Shown one piece after another: positions 8,368 through 52,672 of a stretch of DNA of 64,000 bases (position 1 is its first letter; every line of letters starts with the position of its first letter). Made by a program: the position numbers and the translations under genes. The DNA lies in NCBI RefSeq assembly GCF_988243305.1, contig NZ_OZ547136.1. The stretch is one strand, 5' to 3'. The notes below the pieces were generated by a model. It had not been told where the DNA came from. It worked only from the letters and a program-made list of their open reading frames with translations, and searched no databases.

Positions 8368-8467
8368 TTAACAACTTTGCAGATTAATTAACCAATTGAA
8401 ATGGCTTATGAAATTTAGTGTTGACAGACAAGGTACCGCTAAGTAATATGCACCCCGTTCTCACGAT

Positions 8468-8543
8468 TCCTCTGTAGTTCAGTCGGTAGAACGGCGGACT
8501 GTTAATCCGTATGTCACTGGTTCGAGTCCAGTCAGAGGAGCCA
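8468..8543 (+). tRNA. asnT: tRNA-Asn (anticodon GTT); insertion site of the HPI
   Basis: 76-nt TCCTCTGTAGTTCAGTCGGTAGAACGGCGGACTGTTAATCC...GGAGCCA; identical to three further copies in this window. Confidence 0.95.
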
Positions 8544-8923
8544 ATTTTCTGTTTTCTTGCATCCTTGCGAATCTTTATCTGATGTTGATTCAACAGGTTA
8601 GTGTGAAAACTCTTCTCGGTGCATTTTGATTTTACCCTACGCATCGGGAAAAATTGGTGGTCAAATCTGGGGTCAGGTTAGTTCGATAATGGAGTGACCC
8701 CCATATATCCCTTACCGACGCAAAAATCCGCACCCTCAAGCCTTCTGATAAACCCTTTAAAGTCTCCGATTCTCACGGTCTGTATCTGCGGGTCAAGCCG
8801 GGTGGCTCCCGCCACTGGTATCTCAAATACCGTATTAGCGGTAAAGAATCCCGCATTGCGCTGGGTGCCTATCCAGCCATCTCCCTGTCTGATGCGCGAC
8901 AGCAACGTGAAGGTATCCGTAAA

Positions 8924-9967
8924 ATGCTGGCGCTGAATATCAACCCGGTACAGCAGCGGGCTGCTGTACGTGGCTCACGAACACCGGAGAAAGTTTTTAA
9001 AAACGTGGCGCTGGCGTGGCATAAAAGTAACAGGAAATGGTCGCAGAACACCGCCGACCGTCTGCTTGCCAGCCTGAACAATCACATCTTTCCGGTCATC
9101 GGGAACCTACCTGTATCAGAACTTAAACCCCGTCATTTCATTGACCTGCAGAAAGGGATCGAGGAAAAAGGTCTGCTGGAGGTTGCGTCCCGCACACGGC
9201 AGCACCTGAGTAACATAATACGCCATGCGGTCCATCAGGAGTTAATCGATACGAACCCTGCAGCAAACCTTGGCGGCGTGACCACACCTCCTGTCAGACG
9301 GCACTATCCTGCCCTGCCGCTGGAGCGGCTGCCTGAACTGCTTGAACGTATTGGGGCATATCATCAGGGCCGTGAACTGACCCGGCATGCCGTTCTGCTG
9401 ATGCTGCATGTGTTCATTCGCTCCAGTGAACTGCGTTTCGCCCGCTGGTCAGAGATTGATTTCACAAACCGAGTCTGGACGATACCCGCGACGCGAGAAC
9501 CCATTATTGGCGTGCATTATTCCGGCCGCGGGGCAAAAATGCGAATGCCGCATATCGTCCCCCTCTCAGAACAGTCCATCGCCATTCTGAAACAGATTAA
9601 GGATATCACCGGTAATAATGAACTGATCTTCCCCGGCGACCATAACCCGTATAAGCCAATGTGTGAAAACACGGTCAATAAGGCACTGCGGGTGATGGGT
9701 TACGACACGAAAAAGGATATCTGCGGTCACGGCTTCCGGGCAATGGCATGCAGTGCGCTGATGGAATCGGGTTTATGGGCAAAGGACGCAGTAGAACGCC
9801 AGATGAGTCATCAGGAGCGCAATACCGTGCGCATGGCTTATATTCATAAGGCAGAGCACCTGGAAGCCCGCAAAGCGATGATGCAGTGGTGGTCGGATTA
9901 TCTGGAAGCATGCCGAGAATCTTATGCACCGCCTTATACAATTGGTAAAAATAAGTTTATCCCATAG
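8924..9967 (+). CDS. int: P4-like tyrosine integrase of the HPI, possibly start-defective
   Basis: ATG-initiated ORF of 347 aa; the same frame continues upstream to 8690 encoding an integrase N-terminal arm domain (SLTDAKIRTLKPSDKPF...GSRHWYLKYRISGKESRIALGAYP) but with ATA where the start would be expected. Confidence 0.75.
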   Translation: MLALNINPVQQRAAVRGSRTPEKVFKNVALAWHKSNRKWSQNTADRLLASLNNHIFPVIGNLPVSELKPRHFIDLQKGIEEKGLLEVASRTRQHLSNIIRHAVHQELIDTNPAANLGGVTTPPVRRHYPALPLERLPELLERIGAYHQGRELTRHAVLLMLHVFIRSSELRFARWSEIDFTNRVWTIPATREPIIGVHYSGRGAKMRMPHIVPLSEQSIAILKQIKDITGNNELIFPGDHNPYKPMCENTVNKALRVMGYDTKKDICGHGFRAMACSALMESGLWAKDAVERQMSHQERNTVRMAYIHKAEHLEARKAMMQWWSDYLEACRESYAPPYTIGKNKFIP

Positions 9968-9999
9968 TATACTAACGAATCCCACACTCTGGCAAATTA

Positions 10000-10030
10000 C
10001 CACCACCTCCACAGGAGGTGGTTCTATATA
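10000..10030. terminator. hairpin between convergent int and ybtS
   Basis: Inverted repeat ccaccacctcc aca ggaggtggt in the int-ybtS intergenic region. Confidence 0.4.
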
Positions 10031-20600: not shown

Positions 20601-23600
20601 AAGCGCGCTCAGCCAGCTGGCGGGGGTGAAACAAGCAACCGTTCTGGCGATCGGCGAAAAAGAAAAAACGCTGGCGGCATACGTTGTTCCTCAGGGCGAG
20701 GCTTTTTGCGTTACCGATCATCGGAACCCGGCACTGCCGCAGGCGTGGCACACGCTTGCGGGAACGTTGCCCTGTTGCGCCATCTCGCCAGAGATCTCCG
20801 CAGAACAGGTAGCCGATTTCCTTCAGCATCGCCTGCTAAAACTGAAGCCGGGTCACACCGCTGGCGCCGATCCTCTCCCCCTGATGAACTCACTCGCTAT
20901 CCAGCCGCGCTGGCAGGCCGTGGTGGAACGCTGGTTAGCATTTCTGGTGACACAACGGCGACTGAAGCCCGCTGCTGAAGGTTATCAGGTCTGCGCTGGT
21001 GAAGAACGCGAGGATGAGCACCCGCACTTCAGCGGACATGATTTAACGTTATCGCAAATTCTTCGCGGTGCCCGTAACGAACTGTCGTTACTGAACGACG
21101 CGCAGTGGTCGCCGGAAAGCCTGGCCTTTAACCATCCGGCCAGCGCCCCGTATATTCAGGAACTGGCGACAATTTGCCAACAGCTTGCACAGCGCTTACA
21201 GCGCCCGGTGCGCCTGCTTGAGGTGGGAACCCGCACTGGCCGCGCCGCAGAATCGCTGTTAGCACAGCTCAACGCCGGACAGATTGAGTATGTCGGGCTT
21301 GAGCAGAGCCAGGAGATGCTGCTGAGCGCCCGGCAGAGGCTCGCCCCCTGGCCTGGCGCCCGTCTGTCCCTCTGGAATGCAGACACGCTGGCGGCGCACG
21401 CTCACTCGGCGGACATTATCTGGCTTAATAACGCCCTGCATCGTCTGCTGCCGGAAAATCCCGGGCTCCTTGCGACATTACAACAGCTTGCCGTTCCCGG
21501 CGCGCTGCTCTACGTGATGGAGTTTCGCCAGTTAACGCCGTCCGCCCTACTCAGCACGCTCCTGTTAACCAATGGGCAGCCGGAGGCCTTGCTGCATAAC
21601 AGCGCCGACTGGGCGGCATTATTTAGCGCGGCCGCCTTCAACTGTCAGCATGGCGATGAGGTCGCGGGGTTACAACGCTTCCTCGTACAATGTCCTGACA
21701 GGCAGGTGCGCCGCGATCCCCGTCAACTTCAGGCCGCCCTCGCCGGGCGTCTGCCGGGGTGGATGGTGCCGCAACGGATCGTCTTCCTCGACGCCTTACC
21801 GCTGACGGCTAACGGGAAAATTGACTACCAGGCGCTGAAGCGTCGTCATACCCCTGAAGCGGAAAACCCGGCCGAAGCGGATTTACCCCAGGGCGACATT
21901 GAAAAACAGGTTGCCGCCCTCTGGCAGCAACTCTTATCAACTGGCAATGTCACCAGAGAAACCGACTTCTTCCAGCAAGGCGGCGATAGCCTGCTGGCGA
22001 CCCGTCTGACCGGGCAACTTCATCAGGCAGGTTATGAAGCGCAATTAAGCGACCTGTTTAATCATCCCCGGCTGGCGGATTTTGCCGCCACGCTGCGGAA
22101 AACCGACGTCCCGGTCGAACAACCATTCGTCCACTCCCCTGAAGATCGCTACCAGCCCTTTGCGCTTACCGACGTGCAGCAGGCTTACCTGGTGGGGCGT
22201 CAGCCGGGCTTTGCCCTGGGCGGCGTCGGCTCACATTTCTTTGTTGAATTTGAAATTGCCGATCTGGATCTCACCCGGCTGGAGACGGTCTGGAACCGAT
22301 TAATCGCCCGCCACGATATGCTACGCGCCGTCGTGCGTGATGGACAGCAACAGGTGCTCGAACAGACGCCTCGCTGGGTAATACCCGCACACATCCTCCA
22401 TACGCCTGAAGAGGCGTTGCAGGTGCGCGAAAAACTGGCCCATCAGGTACTCAACCCCGAAGTCTGGCCGGTATTCGATCTCCAGGTCGGTTACGTTGAC
22501 GGGATGCCCGCCCGCCTGTGGCTGTGTCTGGATAACCTGTTACTTGACGGGCTGAGCATGCAGATCCTGCTGGCGGAGCTGGAGCACGGCTACCGCTACC
22601 CGCAACAGCTGCTTCCGCCGCTGCCCGTCACCTTCAGGGATTATCTGCAACAACCCTCGCTACAGTCGCCCAATCCAGATTCTCTGGCATGGTGGCAGGC
22701 GCAGCTTGATGATATTCCTCCGGCGCCTGCGTTGCCGCTGCGCTGCTTGCCTCAGGAGGTTGAAACACCGCGCTTCGCCCGCCTGAACGGCGCACTGGAC
22801 AGCACGCGCTGGCATCGGCTGAAAAAACGGGCGGCTGACGCCCATCTCACCCCGTCGGCCGTACTGTTGTCGGTGTGGTCAACGGTTCTCTCTGCATGGA
22901 GTGCACAGCCTGAGTTCACGCTTAACCTTACGCTTTTCGACAGGCGACCGCTGCACCCGCAAATCAACCAGATTCTGGGCGATTTCACCTCGCTGATGCT
23001 GCTGAGCTGGCATCCCGGCGAAAGCTGGCTGCACAGCGCGCAGTCACTACAGCAGCGGCTGAGCCAGAACCTCAACCACCGCGATGTGTCAGCCATCCGC
23101 GTGATGCGTCAACTGGCGCAACGGCAAAACGTGCCTGCCGTTCCGATGCCCGTCGTCTTTACCAGCGCACTGGGCTTTGAGCAGGATAACTTCCTCGCCC
23201 GGCGTAATCTGCTCAAACCGGTCTGGGGCATCTCCCAGACGCCGCAGGTCTGGCTCGATCACCAGATTTATGAATCCGAAGGCGAACTGCGCTTTAACTG
23301 GGATTTTGTCGCCGCGCTGTTTCCTGCCGGGCAGGTGGAGCGCCAGTTTGAACAGTATTGCGCATTGCTAAACCGAATGGCCGAGGATGAAAGCGGCTGG
23401 CAACTGCCGCTCGCCGCGCTGGTGCCTCCCGTTAAACACGCAGGGCAATGCGCAGAGCGCTCACCGCGCGTATGCCCTGAGCACTCTCAGCCACACATTG
23501 CGGCGGACGAGAGCACCGTCAGCCTGATTTGCGACGCCTTCCGCGAGGTGGTTGGCGAGTCTGTCACGCCCGCAGAAAACTTCTTTGAGGCGGGCGCAAC

Positions 23601-43978: not shown

Positions 43979-45295
43979 ATGGACTCCACGCTCATCTCCA
44001 CTCGTCCCGATGAAGGGACGCTTTCGTTAAGTCGCGCCCGACGAGCTGCGTTAGGCAGTTTCGCTGGTGCCGTCGTCGACTGGTATGATTTTTTACTCTA
44101 TGGCATTACCGCCGCACTGGTGTTTAATCGCGAGTTTTTCCCGCAAGTAAGCCCGGCGATGGGAACGCTCGCCGCATTTGCCACCTTTGGTGTCGGCTTC
44201 CTTTTCCGACCGCTCGGCGGTGTCATTTTCGGTCACTTTGGTGACCGACTGGGACGTAAGCGCATGTTAATGCTGACCGTCTGGATGATGGGCATCGCGA
44301 CAGCCTTGATTGGTATTCTTCCTTCATTCTCGACCATTGGGTGGTGGGCACCTATTTTGCTGGTGACACTGCGTGCCATTCAGGGATTTGCCGTCGGCGG
44401 CGAATGGGGAGGCGCAGCGTTGCTTTCCGTTGAAAGTGCGCCGAAAAATAAAAAAGCCTTTTACAGTAGCGGTGTACAAGTTGGCTACGGAGTAGGTTTA
44501 CTGCTTTCAACCGGACTGGTTTCATTGATCAGTATGATGACGACTGACGTACAGTTTTTAAGCTGGGGCTGGCGCATTCCTTTCCTGTTTAGCATCGTAC
44601 TGGTACTGGGAGCATTGTGGGTGCGCAATGGCATGGAGGAGTCCGCGGAATTTGAACAACAGCAACATAATCAAGCGGCCGCGAAAAAACGCATCCCGGT
44701 TATCGAAGCTCTGTTACGACATCCCGGTGCTTTCCTGAAGATTATTGCGCTACGACTGTGCGAGTTGCTGACGATGTACATCGTTACCGCCTTTGCACTT
44801 AATTATTCAACCCAGAATATGGGGTTACCGCGCGAACTTTTCCTTAATATTGGTTTGCTGGTAGGTGGATTAAGCTGCCTGACAATTCCCTGTTTTGCCT
44901 GGCTTGCCGATCGTTTTGGTCGCCGCAGGTTTTATATCACAGGTGCGTTAATCGGAATGTTGAGCGCATTTCCTTTCTTTATGGCGCTTGAAGCACAATC
45001 TATTTTCTGGATAGTTTTCTTCTCCATAATGCTGGCAAACATTGCGCATGACATGGTGGTGTGTGTGCAACAACCGATGTTTACCGAAATGTTTGGTGCC
45101 AGTTATCGCTATAGTGGCGCTGGAGTCGGTTATCAGGTTGCCAGTGTGGTTGGTGGTGGATTTACACCTTTTATTGCCGCTGCACTCATCACTTACTTTG
45201 CCGGGAACTGGCATAGCGTCGCCATTTATTTGCTGGCTGGATGCCTGATTTCCGCAATAACCGCTTTGTTGATGAAAGACAATCAACGCGCTTGA
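43979..45295 (+). CDS. shiA: shikimate:H+ symporter (MFS)
   Basis: 438-aa 12-TM ORF matching recalled ShiA. Confidence 0.9.
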   Translation: MDSTLISTRPDEGTLSLSRARRAALGSFAGAVVDWYDFLLYGITAALVFNREFFPQVSPAMGTLAAFATFGVGFLFRPLGGVIFGHFGDRLGRKRMLMLTVWMMGIATALIGILPSFSTIGWWAPILLVTLRAIQGFAVGGEWGGAALLSVESAPKNKKAFYSSGVQVGYGVGLLLSTGLVSLISMMTTDVQFLSWGWRIPFLFSIVLVLGALWVRNGMEESAEFEQQQHNQAAAKKRIPVIEALLRHPGAFLKIIALRLCELLTMYIVTAFALNYSTQNMGLPRELFLNIGLLVGGLSCLTIPCFAWLADRFGRRRFYITGALIGMLSAFPFFMALEAQSIFWIVFFSIMLANIAHDMVVCVQQPMFTEMFGASYRYSGAGVGYQVASVVGGGFTPFIAAALITYFAGNWHSVAIYLLAGCLISAITALLMKDNQRA

Positions 45296-45396
45296 TAGCC
45301 TGGCGAAGATCATCCGATCTTCGCCTTACACTTTTGTTTCACATTCCTGTGACATACTATCGGATGTGCGGTAATTGTATGGAACAGGAGACACAC

Positions 45397-46851
45397 ATGA
45401 ATAATAAGGGCTCCGGTCTGACCCCAGCTCAGGCACTGGATAAACTCGACGCGCTGTATGAGCAATCTGTAGTTGCTTTACGCAACGCCATTGGCAACTA
45501 TATTACAAGTGGCGAATTACCTGATGAAAACGCCCGCAAACAAGGTCTTTTTGTCTATCCATCACTGACCGTAACTTGGGATGGTAGCACAACCAATCCC
45601 CCTAAAACGCGCGCATTTGGTCGTTTTACTCACGCAGGCAGCTACACCACCACGATTACTCGCCCTACTCTCTTTCGTTCGTATCTCAATGAACAACTTA
45701 CGTTGCTGTATCAGGATTATGGTGCGCATATCTCGGTGCAACCCTCGCAGCATGAAATCCCTTATCCTTATGTCATTGATGGCTCTGAATTGACACTTGA
45801 TCGCTCAATGAGCGCTGGGTTAACTCGCTATTTCCCGACAACAGAACTGGCGCAAATTGGCGATGAAACTGCAGACGGCATTTATCATCCAACTGAATTC
45901 TCCCCGCTATCGCATTTTGATGCGCGCCGCGTCGATTTTTCCCTCGCGCGGTTGCGCCATTATACCGGTACGCCAGTTGAACATTTTCAGCCGTTCGTCT
46001 TGTTTACCAACTACACACGTTATGTGGATGAATTCGTTCGTTGGGGATGCAGCCAGATCCTCGATCCTGATAGTCCCTACATTGCCCTTTCTTGTGCTGG
46101 CGGGAACTGGATCACCGCCGAAACCGAAGCGCCAGAAGAAGCCATTTCCGACCTTGCATGGAAAAAACACCAGATGCCCGCGTGGCATTTAATTACCGCC
46201 GATGGTCAGGGTATTACTCTGGTGAATATTGGCGTGGGACCGTCAAATGCTAAAACCATCTGCGATCATCTGGCAGTACTACGCCCGGATGTCTGGTTGA
46301 TGATTGGTCACTGTGGTGGCTTACGTGAAAGCCAGGCCATTGGCGATTATGTACTTGCACATGCTTATTTACGCGATGATCACGTTCTTGATGCGGTTCT
46401 GCCGCCCGATATTCCTATTCCAAGCATTGCTGAAGTGCAACGTGCGCTTTATGACGCTACCAAGTTAGTCAGCGGCAGGCCCGGTGAGGAAGTCAAACAG
46501 CGGCTGCGTACAGGTACTGTGGTAACCACAGATGACAGGAACTGGGAATTACGTTACTCAGCTTCTGCACTTCGTTTTAACTTAAGCCGGGCCGTGGCAA
46601 TTGATATGGAAAGTGCAACCATTGCCGCGCAAGGATATCGTTTCCGCGTGCCATACGGGACACTACTGTGTGTTTCAGATAAACCGTTGCATGGCGAGAT
46701 TAAACTTCCCGGCCAGGCTAACCGTTTTTATGAAGGCGCTATTTCCGAACACCTGCAAATTGGCATTCGGGCGATCGATTTGCTGCGCGCAGAAGGCGAC
46801 CGACTGCATTCACGTAAATTACGAACCTTTAATGAGCCGCCGTTCCGATAA
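45397..46851 (+). CDS. amn: AMP nucleosidase
   Basis: Start set at MNNKGSGLTPAQ (484 aa) with GGAG upstream, not the longer ORF from 45241. Confidence 0.9.
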   Translation: MNNKGSGLTPAQALDKLDALYEQSVVALRNAIGNYITSGELPDENARKQGLFVYPSLTVTWDGSTTNPPKTRAFGRFTHAGSYTTTITRPTLFRSYLNEQLTLLYQDYGAHISVQPSQHEIPYPYVIDGSELTLDRSMSAGLTRYFPTTELAQIGDETADGIYHPTEFSPLSHFDARRVDFSLARLRHYTGTPVEHFQPFVLFTNYTRYVDEFVRWGCSQILDPDSPYIALSCAGGNWITAETEAPEEAISDLAWKKHQMPAWHLITADGQGITLVNIGVGPSNAKTICDHLAVLRPDVWLMIGHCGGLRESQAIGDYVLAHAYLRDDHVLDAVLPPDIPIPSIAEVQRALYDATKLVSGRPGEEVKQRLRTGTVVTTDDRNWELRYSASALRFNLSRAVAIDMESATIAAQGYRFRVPYGTLLCVSDKPLHGEIKLPGQANRFYEGAISEHLQIGIRAIDLLRAEGDRLHSRKLRTFNEPPFR

Positions 46852-47193
46852 TAAGTTATGAACCTTCTTATCAGAAATAGATGTGAAGGATTAAGTAAGA
46901 CATCTGGCAAATAGCCTGCAATAAACGCGGGCTGTTTGCTTCCTTGGGCAGATGCGAGTTTTATTATCGTCTTAATGATTTCCACATATTAAAAGCAAGT
47001 ATGCTTTCAAAACACAATTATAAAAAATCCCGCCAACAACATTAGTTTTTATAAAATTAAATATAAGATTATGGCTTTAGAATATTTTTATTTCTAATAG
47101 ACGAGATTTTTCCTGTTATGATATAATATGCTGAATTAACACATGTTAACGATTTACCAGTAATGTAAATAAATTTTCGAGGAGATCATTCCA

Positions 47194-47910
47194 GTGGGAC
47201 GTAAATGGGCCAATATTGTTGCTAAAAAAACGGCTAAAGACGGTGCAACGTCTAAAATTTATGCAAAATTCGGTGTAGAAATCTATGCTGCTGCCAAACA
47301 AGGTGAACCCGATCCAGAATTAAACACATCTTTAAAATTCGTTATTGAACGTGCAAAGCAGGCACAAGTTCCAAAGCACGTTATTGATAAAGCAATTGAT
47401 AAAGCCAAAGGCGGTGGAGATGAAACGTTCGTACAGGGACGTTATGAAGGCTTTGGTCCTAATGGCTCAATGATTATTGCTGAGACATTGACTTCAAATG
47501 TTAACCGTACGATTGCTAACGTTCGCACAATTTTCAATAAAAAAGGCGGCAATATCGGAGCGGCAGGTTCTGTCAGCTATATGTTTGACAATACGGGTGT
47601 GATTGTATTTAAAGGAACAGACCCTGACCATATTTTTGAAATTTTGCTTGAAGCTGAAGTTGATGTTCGTGATGTAACTGAAGAAGAAGGTAATATTGTT
47701 ATTTATACTGAACCTACTGACCTTCATAAAGGAATCGCGGCGCTAAAAGCAGCTGGAATCACTGAGTTCTCAACAACAGAATTAGAAATGATTGCTCAAT
47801 CTGAAGTTGAGCTTTCCCCAGAAGATTTAGAAATCTTTGAAGGGCTTGTTGATGCCCTTGAAGATGACGACGATGTACAAAAAGTTTATCATAACGTCGC
47901 AAATCTCTAA
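47194..47910 (+). CDS. yeeN: YebC/PmpR-family transcriptional regulator
   Basis: 238-aa ORF with GTG start; matches recalled YeeN. Confidence 0.85.
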
Positions 47911-48364: not shown

Positions 48365-48440
48365 TGGCTCCTCTGACTGGACTCGAACCAGTGACATACG
48401 GATTAACAGTCCGCCGTTCTACCGACTGAACTACAGAGGA
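48365..48440 (-). tRNA. asnW: tRNA-Asn (anticodon GTT)
   Basis: Exact reverse complement of the 76-nt asnT sequence; gene name assigned from recalled K-12 order. Confidence 0.93.
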
Positions 48441-50188: not shown

Positions 50189-50264
50189 TCCTCTGTAGTT
50201 CAGTCGGTAGAACGGCGGACTGTTAATCCGTATGTCACTGGTTCGAGTCCAGTCAGAGGAGCCA
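50189..50264 (+). tRNA. asnU: tRNA-Asn (anticodon GTT)
   Basis: 76-nt sequence identical to asnT, followed by a terminator hairpin. Confidence 0.93.
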
Positions 50265-52596: not shown

Positions 52597-52672
52597 TCCT
52601 CTGTAGTTCAGTCGGTAGAACGGCGGACTGTTAATCCGTATGTCACTGGTTCGAGTCCAGTCAGAGGAGCCA
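52597..52672 (+). tRNA. asnV: tRNA-Asn (anticodon GTT)
   Basis: 76-nt sequence identical to asnT, followed by a terminator hairpin. Confidence 0.93.

Follow-up and report, generated by a model that had tools for sequence, protein, structure and literature searches.

Did the integrase gene of this HPI still produce a full-length protein without a canonical start codon, and was the loss of that codon what immobilised the island? The gene was located in a stretch of 64,000 nucleotides from contig NZ_OZ547136.1 of the RefSeq assembly GCF_988243305.1, hereafter the window. A preliminary description made from the letters of this DNA had proposed that a G-to-A mutation of the start codon either inactivated int or left only an N-terminally truncated protein, and that both outcomes would be consistent with an immobilised island. 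In our analysis, the most probable explanation was that the gene represented the intB of the Yersinia high-pathogenicity island (HPI) in the truncated form that is fixed at asnT in E. coli, that its ATG had changed to ATA, and that this change was one of several independent lesions that arose after the island's right end was lost and selection was released.

The gene had mtfA upstream, ybtS downstream and a tRNA-Asn next to it, and on the basis of these neighbours it was therefore identified as the integrase gene (intB) of the HPI at asnT (Table 1). The island had the organisation of a truncated asnT HPI: asnT was beside mtfA, int was followed by the yersiniabactin core from ybtS to fyuA, and the border and the repeat on the fyuA side were lost. 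This gene order agreed with the annotated islands of MNCRE44, Nissle and 98234. The product contained an arm, a central and a catalytic domain together with the R-K-H-R-H-Y residues, as is characteristic of the P4-like (CP4-57-type) tyrosine recombinases. All six catalytic residues (R239, K278, H342, R345, H369 and Y379) were unchanged, and each was conserved in 68-69 of the 69 homologs. The product also matched the integrase family PHROG 1 (phrog_1) with an E-value of 1.5e-71, and it reached 230.6 bits with the NCBIfam model NF007246, which was under the 434-bit cut-off of that model.

Table 1. Features of the integrase gene, its surroundings and the distal border of the island, with positions in the window
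Feature	Position	Strand	Basis or remark
asnT promoter-like site, TTGACA-17-TAATAT	8421..8449	+	consensus scan
tRNA-Asn (asnT), HPI attachment site	8468..8543	+	ARAGORN
attL core, 17 bp, CCAGTCAGAGGAGCCAA	8528-8544	+	tRNA-Asn 3' end; pattern search
tRNA-int intergenic region (attL arm and int 5' leader)	8545..8704	+	conserved across 78 asn-tRNA integrase loci of other species
Shine-Dalgarno-like GGAG	8691..8694	+	10 nt 5' of the start position; sequence reading; kept in homologs
C5 run preceded by an A, variable in E. coli	8697..8702	+	A+C5 in the window
Mutated start codon ATA (ancestral ATG)	8705..8707	+	G-to-A at 8707; RefSeq CDS starts here
HPI integrase frame (intB, P4-like tyrosine recombinase)	8705..9967	+	420 codons and stop; otherwise uninterrupted
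Arm DNA-binding domain, aa 3-87	8711..8965	+	Pfam PF13356, E 5.8e-24
Derived replacement L29R (arm domain)	8789..8791	+	Leu in 62/69 homologs and PDB 3JTZ
First canonical in-frame start, Met74	8924..8926	+	would give a 347-aa protein without the arm domain
Derived replacement E88V	8966..8968	+	Glu in 64/69 homologs
Central (core-binding) domain, aa 98-191	8996..9277	+	Pfam PF22022, E 1.3e-22
Derived replacement L149Q	9149..9151	+	Leu in 68/69 homologs
Derived replacement M172I	9218..9220	+	Met in 68/69 homologs
Catalytic domain, aa 224-384	9374..9856	+	Pfam PF00589; six catalytic residues present
Derived replacement R271H	9515..9517	+	Arg in 69/69 homologs
Truncated HPI right end	38991..39997	.	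blastn and tblastn vs DA33133 ICE-type island

The 5' end of the gene read ...GATAA TGG AGT GAC CCC CAT ATA TCC CTT ACC GAC... The integrase frame was open from 8690, directly after a TAA stop at 8687-8689, and its translation from this point (WSDPH-I-SLTDAKIRTLKPSDKPFKV...) contained no stop until 9965-9967. The codon preceding SLTDAKIR was ATA. The list of open reading frames, in which a frame opens at the first ATG, GTG or TTG after a stop, let the integrase frame begin only at 8924 with a length of 347 aa, and it gave no canonical in-frame start between 8690 and 8923. The frame was thus uninterrupted but without a canonical start codon, and two points of the preliminary description were confirmed: the open frame with arm-coding sequence from 8708, on which the sequence and PF13356 agreed, and the presence of ATA at the expected start, on which the sequence and the list of frames agreed. 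The preliminary description missed that translation table 11 permits ATA as an initiator, albeit a weak one.

Upstream starts were considered as well. Initiation at an out-of-frame codon followed by a frameshift was rejected for the window, where the ATG at 8689 reads ATG GAG TGA and then stops; the GTG at 8694 was also rejected as a rescued start of int, as it opens an unrelated frame of 80 aa. The length of the short C run upstream of the start position was variable, with C6 in CFT073 and 98234; some draft assemblies had C7, which brings both the ATG at 8689 and the GTG at 8694 into the frame of int. This variant was rare and occurred in none of the complete genomes.

The codon expected at this position was derived from homologous genes. 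In a scan that covered one genome for each bacterial species, 80 loci encoded relatives with 55-99% amino-acid identity. The N-terminus could be placed in 78 asn-tRNA integrase loci of other species, and 75 of these had ATG at the homologous codon, accompanied by the same GGAGTGACCCCCAT context; the homologous start codon was preceded by an almost invariant GGTTCGATRAYGGAGTGACCCCCAW. Exactly the upstream sequence of the window, followed by ATG, was found in the closest relatives, namely Raoultella planticola (99%), Klebsiella pneumoniae (97%) and K. spallanzanii (94%). The 80 loci of this one-genome-per-species scan included no copy from Y. pestis or Y. pseudotuberculosis, and PDB 3JTZ was used as the reference N-terminus. 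Crystal structures of the arm-binding domain from an HPI-type integrase (PDB 3JTZ/3RMP), which we take to be that of the Yersinia HPI, begin with MSLTDAKIR, and residues 1-80 of the window protein matched this sequence except for L29R (E 2e-46 for 3JTZ). These alignments indicate that the ancestral start codon was ATG and that the ATA of the window was derived from it by a G-to-A change. The mutation put forward in the preliminary description was thus borne out by 75 of the 78 homologs, by about 1,230 HPI copies of E. coli itself and by PDB 3JTZ.

The frequencies of both alleles were obtained from 5,426 complete E. coli genomes using megablast queries of 55-56 nt centred on the site, in which the 28-nt seed had to span it. 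The ATA version was present in 971 genomes and the ATG version, counting any seed, in 1,288-1,289. The ATG seeds exactly matched the integrase of the pks island at asnW in 276 genomes, and 24-25 genomes had ATG at two places. A second ATG haplotype (GTGCCCCCCATATGTTCC), which was unreachable with the first query, accounted for 195 genomes. The estimate for the HPI was about 1,230 ATG copies vs 971 ATA copies, or approximately 56% and 44% of some 2,200 HPI-positive complete E. coli genomes. CFT073, Nissle 1917, F11 and clone D i2 were among the ATA carriers. The ATA allele was real and represented a common lineage marker that was not peculiar to this strain.

This allele was already present in the databases in an implicit form. 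ECONIH4 was 100% identical to the window across 8440-10000, and the int DNA of the window was identical to its CDS annotated as WP_024165620.1. The RefSeq/PGAP annotation set the start of the CDS on ATA and described the product as an intact tyrosine-type recombinase/integrase, with WP_024165620.1 for ECONIH4 and WP_024174323.1 for Nissle, F11 and CFT073. This start was placed by homology, not by experiment. In the protein collection, at least 1,000 contigs carried a 420-aa version with an initial Met. Hundreds of RefSeq records contained the ATA allele implicitly. We found no published mention of an ATA start of the HPI int in the searchable literature. The gene, the island, its immobility and the other lesions of int were already published.

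The region between the tRNA and int retained the properties expected of a leader. The 17-mer of attL was the same as attO (PMC2801613). Conservation of the alignment columns in the tRNA-int spacer was mostly 80-100%, and the last 25 nt were near-invariant. We rejected the idea that these 25 nt formed a special RNA element or a tRNA remnant, since the entire spacer of 160 nt was conserved, as expected for an attachment-site arm and a leader. RNA folding before the start was no better than that of shuffled sequence (z = 0.28). The consensus scan revealed no terminator-like site between the tRNA-Asn and int, and it has been reported that the promoter of the HPI int is swapped for that of the asn tRNA upon integration (PMC8209727). 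Therefore, the int mRNA was probably made from the asnT promoter, and the promoter-like site listed in Table 1 probably drives read-through transcription into int.

The consequence of the ATA codon for translation can be estimated from reporter experiments. In E. coli, AUA initiated at 1-2% of AUG with an sfGFP reporter and at 0.02-3% with a NanoLuc reporter (bioRxiv 10.1101/063800). Because AUA can initiate at approximately 0.02-3% of AUG, we could only infer the loss of Int function in the window. The best-supported effect was probably a strong reduction of full-length Int and not an absolute null. Thus, int was likely to be in effect a recent pseudogene whose frame is still intact, despite its RefSeq label. 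Of the two alternatives in the preliminary description, the start mutation was supported, but the inactivation was only probable given the weak activity of AUA and the intact RefSeq annotation. A protein started at Met74 would, as predicted from the domain boundaries, be without nearly the entire arm DNA-binding domain.

The immobility of the island had another source. Homology to the ICE-type HPI of DA33133 ended at about 39997, short of the gene for the AlpA/Hef-like excision factor. The 17-mer CCAGTCAGAGGAGCCAA occurred four times in the window, each time at the 3' end of a tRNA-Asn (8468-8543, 48365-48440, 50189-50264 and 52597-52672), and the pattern search found no right-hand 17-bp repeat (attR) on the fyuA side within the window. 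When the AlpA-family protein encoded by the ICE-type HPI was used as a tblastn query, no AlpA/Hef-type excision factor was detected in the window. A mobile island has both attL and attR as well as a recombination directionality factor (Hef/AlpA); here the pair of attachment sites was incomplete and the factor was absent. It has previously been reported that every asnT HPI of the ECOR collection had a deletion of the fyuA-side border that removed the direct repeat and fixed the island (PMC2606025; restated in PMC8209727). Thus, the island was immobilised mainly by the loss of its right end, with attR and the excision factor, and independently of int. The change of the start codon was a consequence or a companion of this loss and not the cause of immobility; the preliminary description was right that the island was immobilised, but it was the right end and not the start codon that fixed it.

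Several observations pointed to decay of int. The int genes of the window and Raoultella differed by 6 nonsynonymous and 1 synonymous changes; for the Klebsiella copies, the corresponding counts were 13:18 and 31:45. Across five aligned whole islands (the window, MNCRE44, Nissle, GmF052 and 98234), which were picked by allele class, the polymorphisms of int comprised 18 nonsynonymous and 3 synonymous sites compared to 63:80 in the ybt genes without irp2 (Fisher p = 3.4e-4). The five derived replacements of the window hit positions that were 90-100% conserved in the 69 homologs. As judged from these alignments, int looks as if it evolves without visible constraint in E. coli, with an excess of amino-acid changes resembling that of a pseudogene. 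Moreover, a frameshifting deletion of bp 124-470 (347 bp) was present in 334 complete E. coli genomes, the int of PMV-1 had a nonsense codon (Q394*), and that of YJ6 carried an IS1 insertion. Paauw et al. 2010 had earlier reported this deletion from isolates of their own (PMC2801613), and these authors noted that no gene within the conserved HPI was more diverse than intB.

The ATA codon itself was found on at least three int haplotypes. The haplotype of the window, ECONIH4 and PMV-1 had R29, V88, Q149, I172 and H271; that of Nissle and F11 kept the ancestral L29 and E88 and had Q61, R121 and P204 in addition. The third haplotype, from GmF052, had S5, R29, S34, T55 and V88 and was the same as the ST131-type haplotype of MNCRE44 except for the start codon. 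GmF052 and MNCRE44 shared their alleles at 8618, 8717/8718, 8867 and 10014 and differed at 8707. Therefore, at least one additional event (a point change, a reversion or a very short conversion tract) was needed, and the idea that ATA arose once and was then spread in large recombination blocks was ruled out in at least this case. This pattern suggests that the start-codon site was homoplasic and changed more than once. The whole HPI was a mosaic with many conflicting informative sites among the five islands, in agreement with the recombinational spread of the HPI described by Schubert et al. (PMC2606025). The homoplasy at 8707 can be considered as a lead rather than as evidence of selection, as five islands give neither the direction nor the number of events.

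In the explanation that we favoured, the island would first have been deprived of its right end, together with attR and the excision factor of the AlpA/Hef type. Int would then have been left without a substrate for excision of the island, and purifying selection on its gene would have been lifted. Independent lesions could subsequently have built up in int, with the ATG-to-ATA change among them; int would have decayed because the island was by then without the components required for its movement. The transcript would probably still be made from the asnT promoter with GGAG kept, but with AUA as a very poor initiator, and the yield of full-length Int would be no more than a few percent of that from the ATG allele. 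Several observations ran against decay. The frame was otherwise intact, with the six catalytic residues and the Shine-Dalgarno sequence kept, and residual functional Int was possible; RefSeq annotated the CDS starting at ATA as intact; and homoplasy was not predicted by pure neutral decay, though recombination among HPI variants was pervasive.

The same observations could be read as signs of a functional gene, and we considered it unlikely, on balance, that ATA was a genuine and deliberately weak start that tuned functional Int to a low level, for example to act in trans on pks-like islands at asn-tRNA genes or to offset the over-production that read-through from the strong asnT promoter would cause. 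The intact RefSeq annotation of the CDS from ATA would fit such a role, as would the retention of GGAG, of the whole leader and of the catalytic residues, and AUA initiation was measurable in reporters. The presence of ATA on at least three haplotype backgrounds could also reflect selection, and no more than about 25 of the 276 genomes with the pks integrase also had an ATG-type HPI copy. However, the association with pks was confounded by phylogroup B2 ancestry, and the RefSeq start reflected homology and not an experiment. A non-ATG start was not conserved, given the ATG in 75 of 78 homologs and in about 56% of the HPI copies of E. coli. The nonsynonymous excess, the five replacements at conserved positions, one of which is the invariant R271, and the many lineages that destroy int outright also argued against a maintained function. 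A related view, that the start change was a repeatedly selected down-tuning or silencing of Int and not passive decay, appeared to us quite improbable. According to it, Int driven by asnT could act on the identical 17-bp sites at other asn-tRNA genes or islands such as pks and would destabilise the region; the G-to-A change or its reversal would have occurred at least twice on different HPI haplotypes, and the rare C7 variant that restores the upstream ATG to the frame would represent a counter-move.

It was very unlikely that translation from the ATG at 8924 yielded an arm-less integrase of 347 aa with some residual or altered activity, even though Met74 was the first canonical in-frame start, an AAGG was located about 10 nt upstream of it, and the central and catalytic domains would stay. 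Nothing marked this codon as a start, as it lay inside the conserved arm domain (aa 3-87). The sole promoter-like site nearby (8896-8925) would start transcription past the ATG, and there was no attR for an arm-less enzyme to act on. Lambda-type integrases without the arm domain are not known to perform integrative or excisive recombination. Finally, the possibility that the A at 8707 was a sequencing or assembly error, or that reference HPI integrases lacked ATG too, was hardly credible and gained no support in our data. The same base was shared by 971 independent complete genomes, which ruled out an error that had masked an ATG, and the comparison with reference and other E. coli HPI integrases revealed ATG in 75 of 78 homologs and at the N-terminus of PDB 3JTZ.

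Decay of intB after fixation of the island therefore remained our preferred reading, and it left the known view of HPI immobility in E. coli unchanged; in this respect the finding was correct but ordinary. About 970 complete E. coli genomes, including CFT073 and Nissle 1917, encoded an HPI integrase that was "intact" in RefSeq but had ATA and was probably produced at trace levels at best, and an "intact" int should not be counted as evidence of HPI mobility. Gene callers limited to ATG, GTG and TTG would instead give a truncated protein of 347 aa. The loss of the start, the 347-bp deletion, the nonsense codon and the IS insertion formed a clean example, with many carriers, of the parallel erosion of an integration module after fixation of the island. 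The residual novelty was the repeated change of the start codon and the mismatch between the "intact" annotation and the likely biology.

Comparison with known systems placed this allele among the HPI-type integrases. The HPI Int of Yersinia pestis and Y. pseudotuberculosis (intB; PDB 3JTZ/3RMP) represents the same gene, with residues 1-80 identical except for L29R, a shared three-domain architecture and likewise a location beside an asn tRNA. In contrast to it, the window had ATA, five derived replacements and an island without attR or an excision factor. The mobile ICE-type HPI (ECOR31 / ICEEc1-like; DA33133 at asnV) had an int leader and a ybt core near-identical to those of the window. However, DA33133 kept ATG and its Int protein was identical to that of Raoultella; downstream of fyuA, it had an AlpA-family gene, a VirB-type secretion system and MobC, whereas the homology of the window ended at about 39997. 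The intB allele with the deletion of bp 124-470 represented a further inactivating lesion that affects this gene of the fixed island, but it kept ATG and was frameshifted, while the allele of the window lost the start and kept the frame. The integrase of the pks (colibactin) island at asnW was a paralogous P4-like integrase beside an asn tRNA, and its leader and start region matched in 50 of 51 nt. Unlike the gene in the window, it kept ATG, and the pks island retains both direct repeats (PMC8209727). The pks island was absent from the window. A functional start at a near-cognate codon is known from the E. coli infC and pcnB genes, whose AUU starts are conserved among orthologs and have a shown regulatory role. 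The window resembled them in that an AUN codon was annotated as the start and followed a normal Shine-Dalgarno sequence, but its ATA was a derived polymorphism within one species, and its orthologs had ATG in 75 of 78 cases as did about 56% of the HPI copies of E. coli.

Comparison with the flanking sites 8618, 8717-8718, 8867, and 10014 showed that the ATA/ATG difference at position 8707, the third base of the start codon of the HPI integrase gene int, was homoplasic. By this comparison, the single base has evidently changed two or more times, by mutation or by micro-conversion, since GmF052 (ATA) and the ST131-type strain MNCRE44 (ATG) differed there on a common surrounding haplotype and ATA was also present on two int haplotypes other than that of GmF052.

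The short C-run just ahead of this codon was polymorphic as well. A C7 form (GGAGTGCCCCCCCATATA) was found in approximately 59-65 draft or Logan assemblies and in no complete genome. With seven cytosines, the ATG at 8689 and the GTG at 8694 come in frame with int, and the predicted N-termini were MECPPHISLTD... and MPPHISLTD..., respectively. The C7 variant may restore a canonical start through a second-site change, or it could be mere slippage.

Loss of the start codon was also observed in other asn-tRNA integrases. Escherichia albertii NBRC 107761 possessed a separate copy, 68% identical, in which ATA replaced ATG (the codon before locus position 1498) and which had further N-terminal changes (IYLNNSKIR), and a Rosenbergiella integrase locus had AGA at the start-codon position. 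Judged from their sequences, these integrases, whether paralogs or orthologs, have apparently lost their start codons independently. At the protein level, very many distinct variants of the 420-aa E. coli integrase, one or two residues apart (e.g., G25S, R36H, and R372H), were present among the matches listed from the protein collection, and this abundance agreed with unconstrained amino-acid change.

The 160-nt spacer between tRNA-Asn and int (8545-8704) was 80-100% conserved per column throughout the 80 cross-species integrase loci and was thus more conserved than the coding sequence, as the proteins of these loci were only 55-99% identical. This conservation presumably reflects functions of an attachment-site arm and a leader. 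The predicted fold of the spacer RNA was no better than that of shuffled sequence.

Elsewhere in the island, 28 SNPs were clustered within 180 bp of irp2 (22584-22761), a state common to Nissle and GmF052 versus the window, MNCRE44, and 98234. Such a pattern suggests that recombination or gene conversion has replaced a short tract of this NRPS gene.

To the right of fyuA, the region 38991-47910 was very AT-rich at its beginning, and homology to the ICE-type HPI, the mobile form of the island, stopped at approximately 39997. In related genomes, the region right of fyuA held a gene with an inverse-autotransporter beta domain, as well as an Ig-like-domain pseudogene in a degraded state. Three further tRNA-Asn genes followed.

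Polymorphic run and further tRNA-Asn genes in the window
Feature	Position	Strand	State
Run before the int start codon	8697-8702		A+C5 in the window; C6 in CFT073 and strain 98234
tRNA-Asn gene	48365-48440	-	
tRNA-Asn gene	50189-50264	+	
tRNA-Asn gene	52597-52672	+	

The ORFs between these three genes matched yeeO, cbl, and nac of CFT073 in size and order. The colibactin (pks) island was absent from all three tRNA-Asn genes, whereas in CFT073 the pks integrase, with an ATG start, was located after a tRNA-Asn gene adjoining yeeO.
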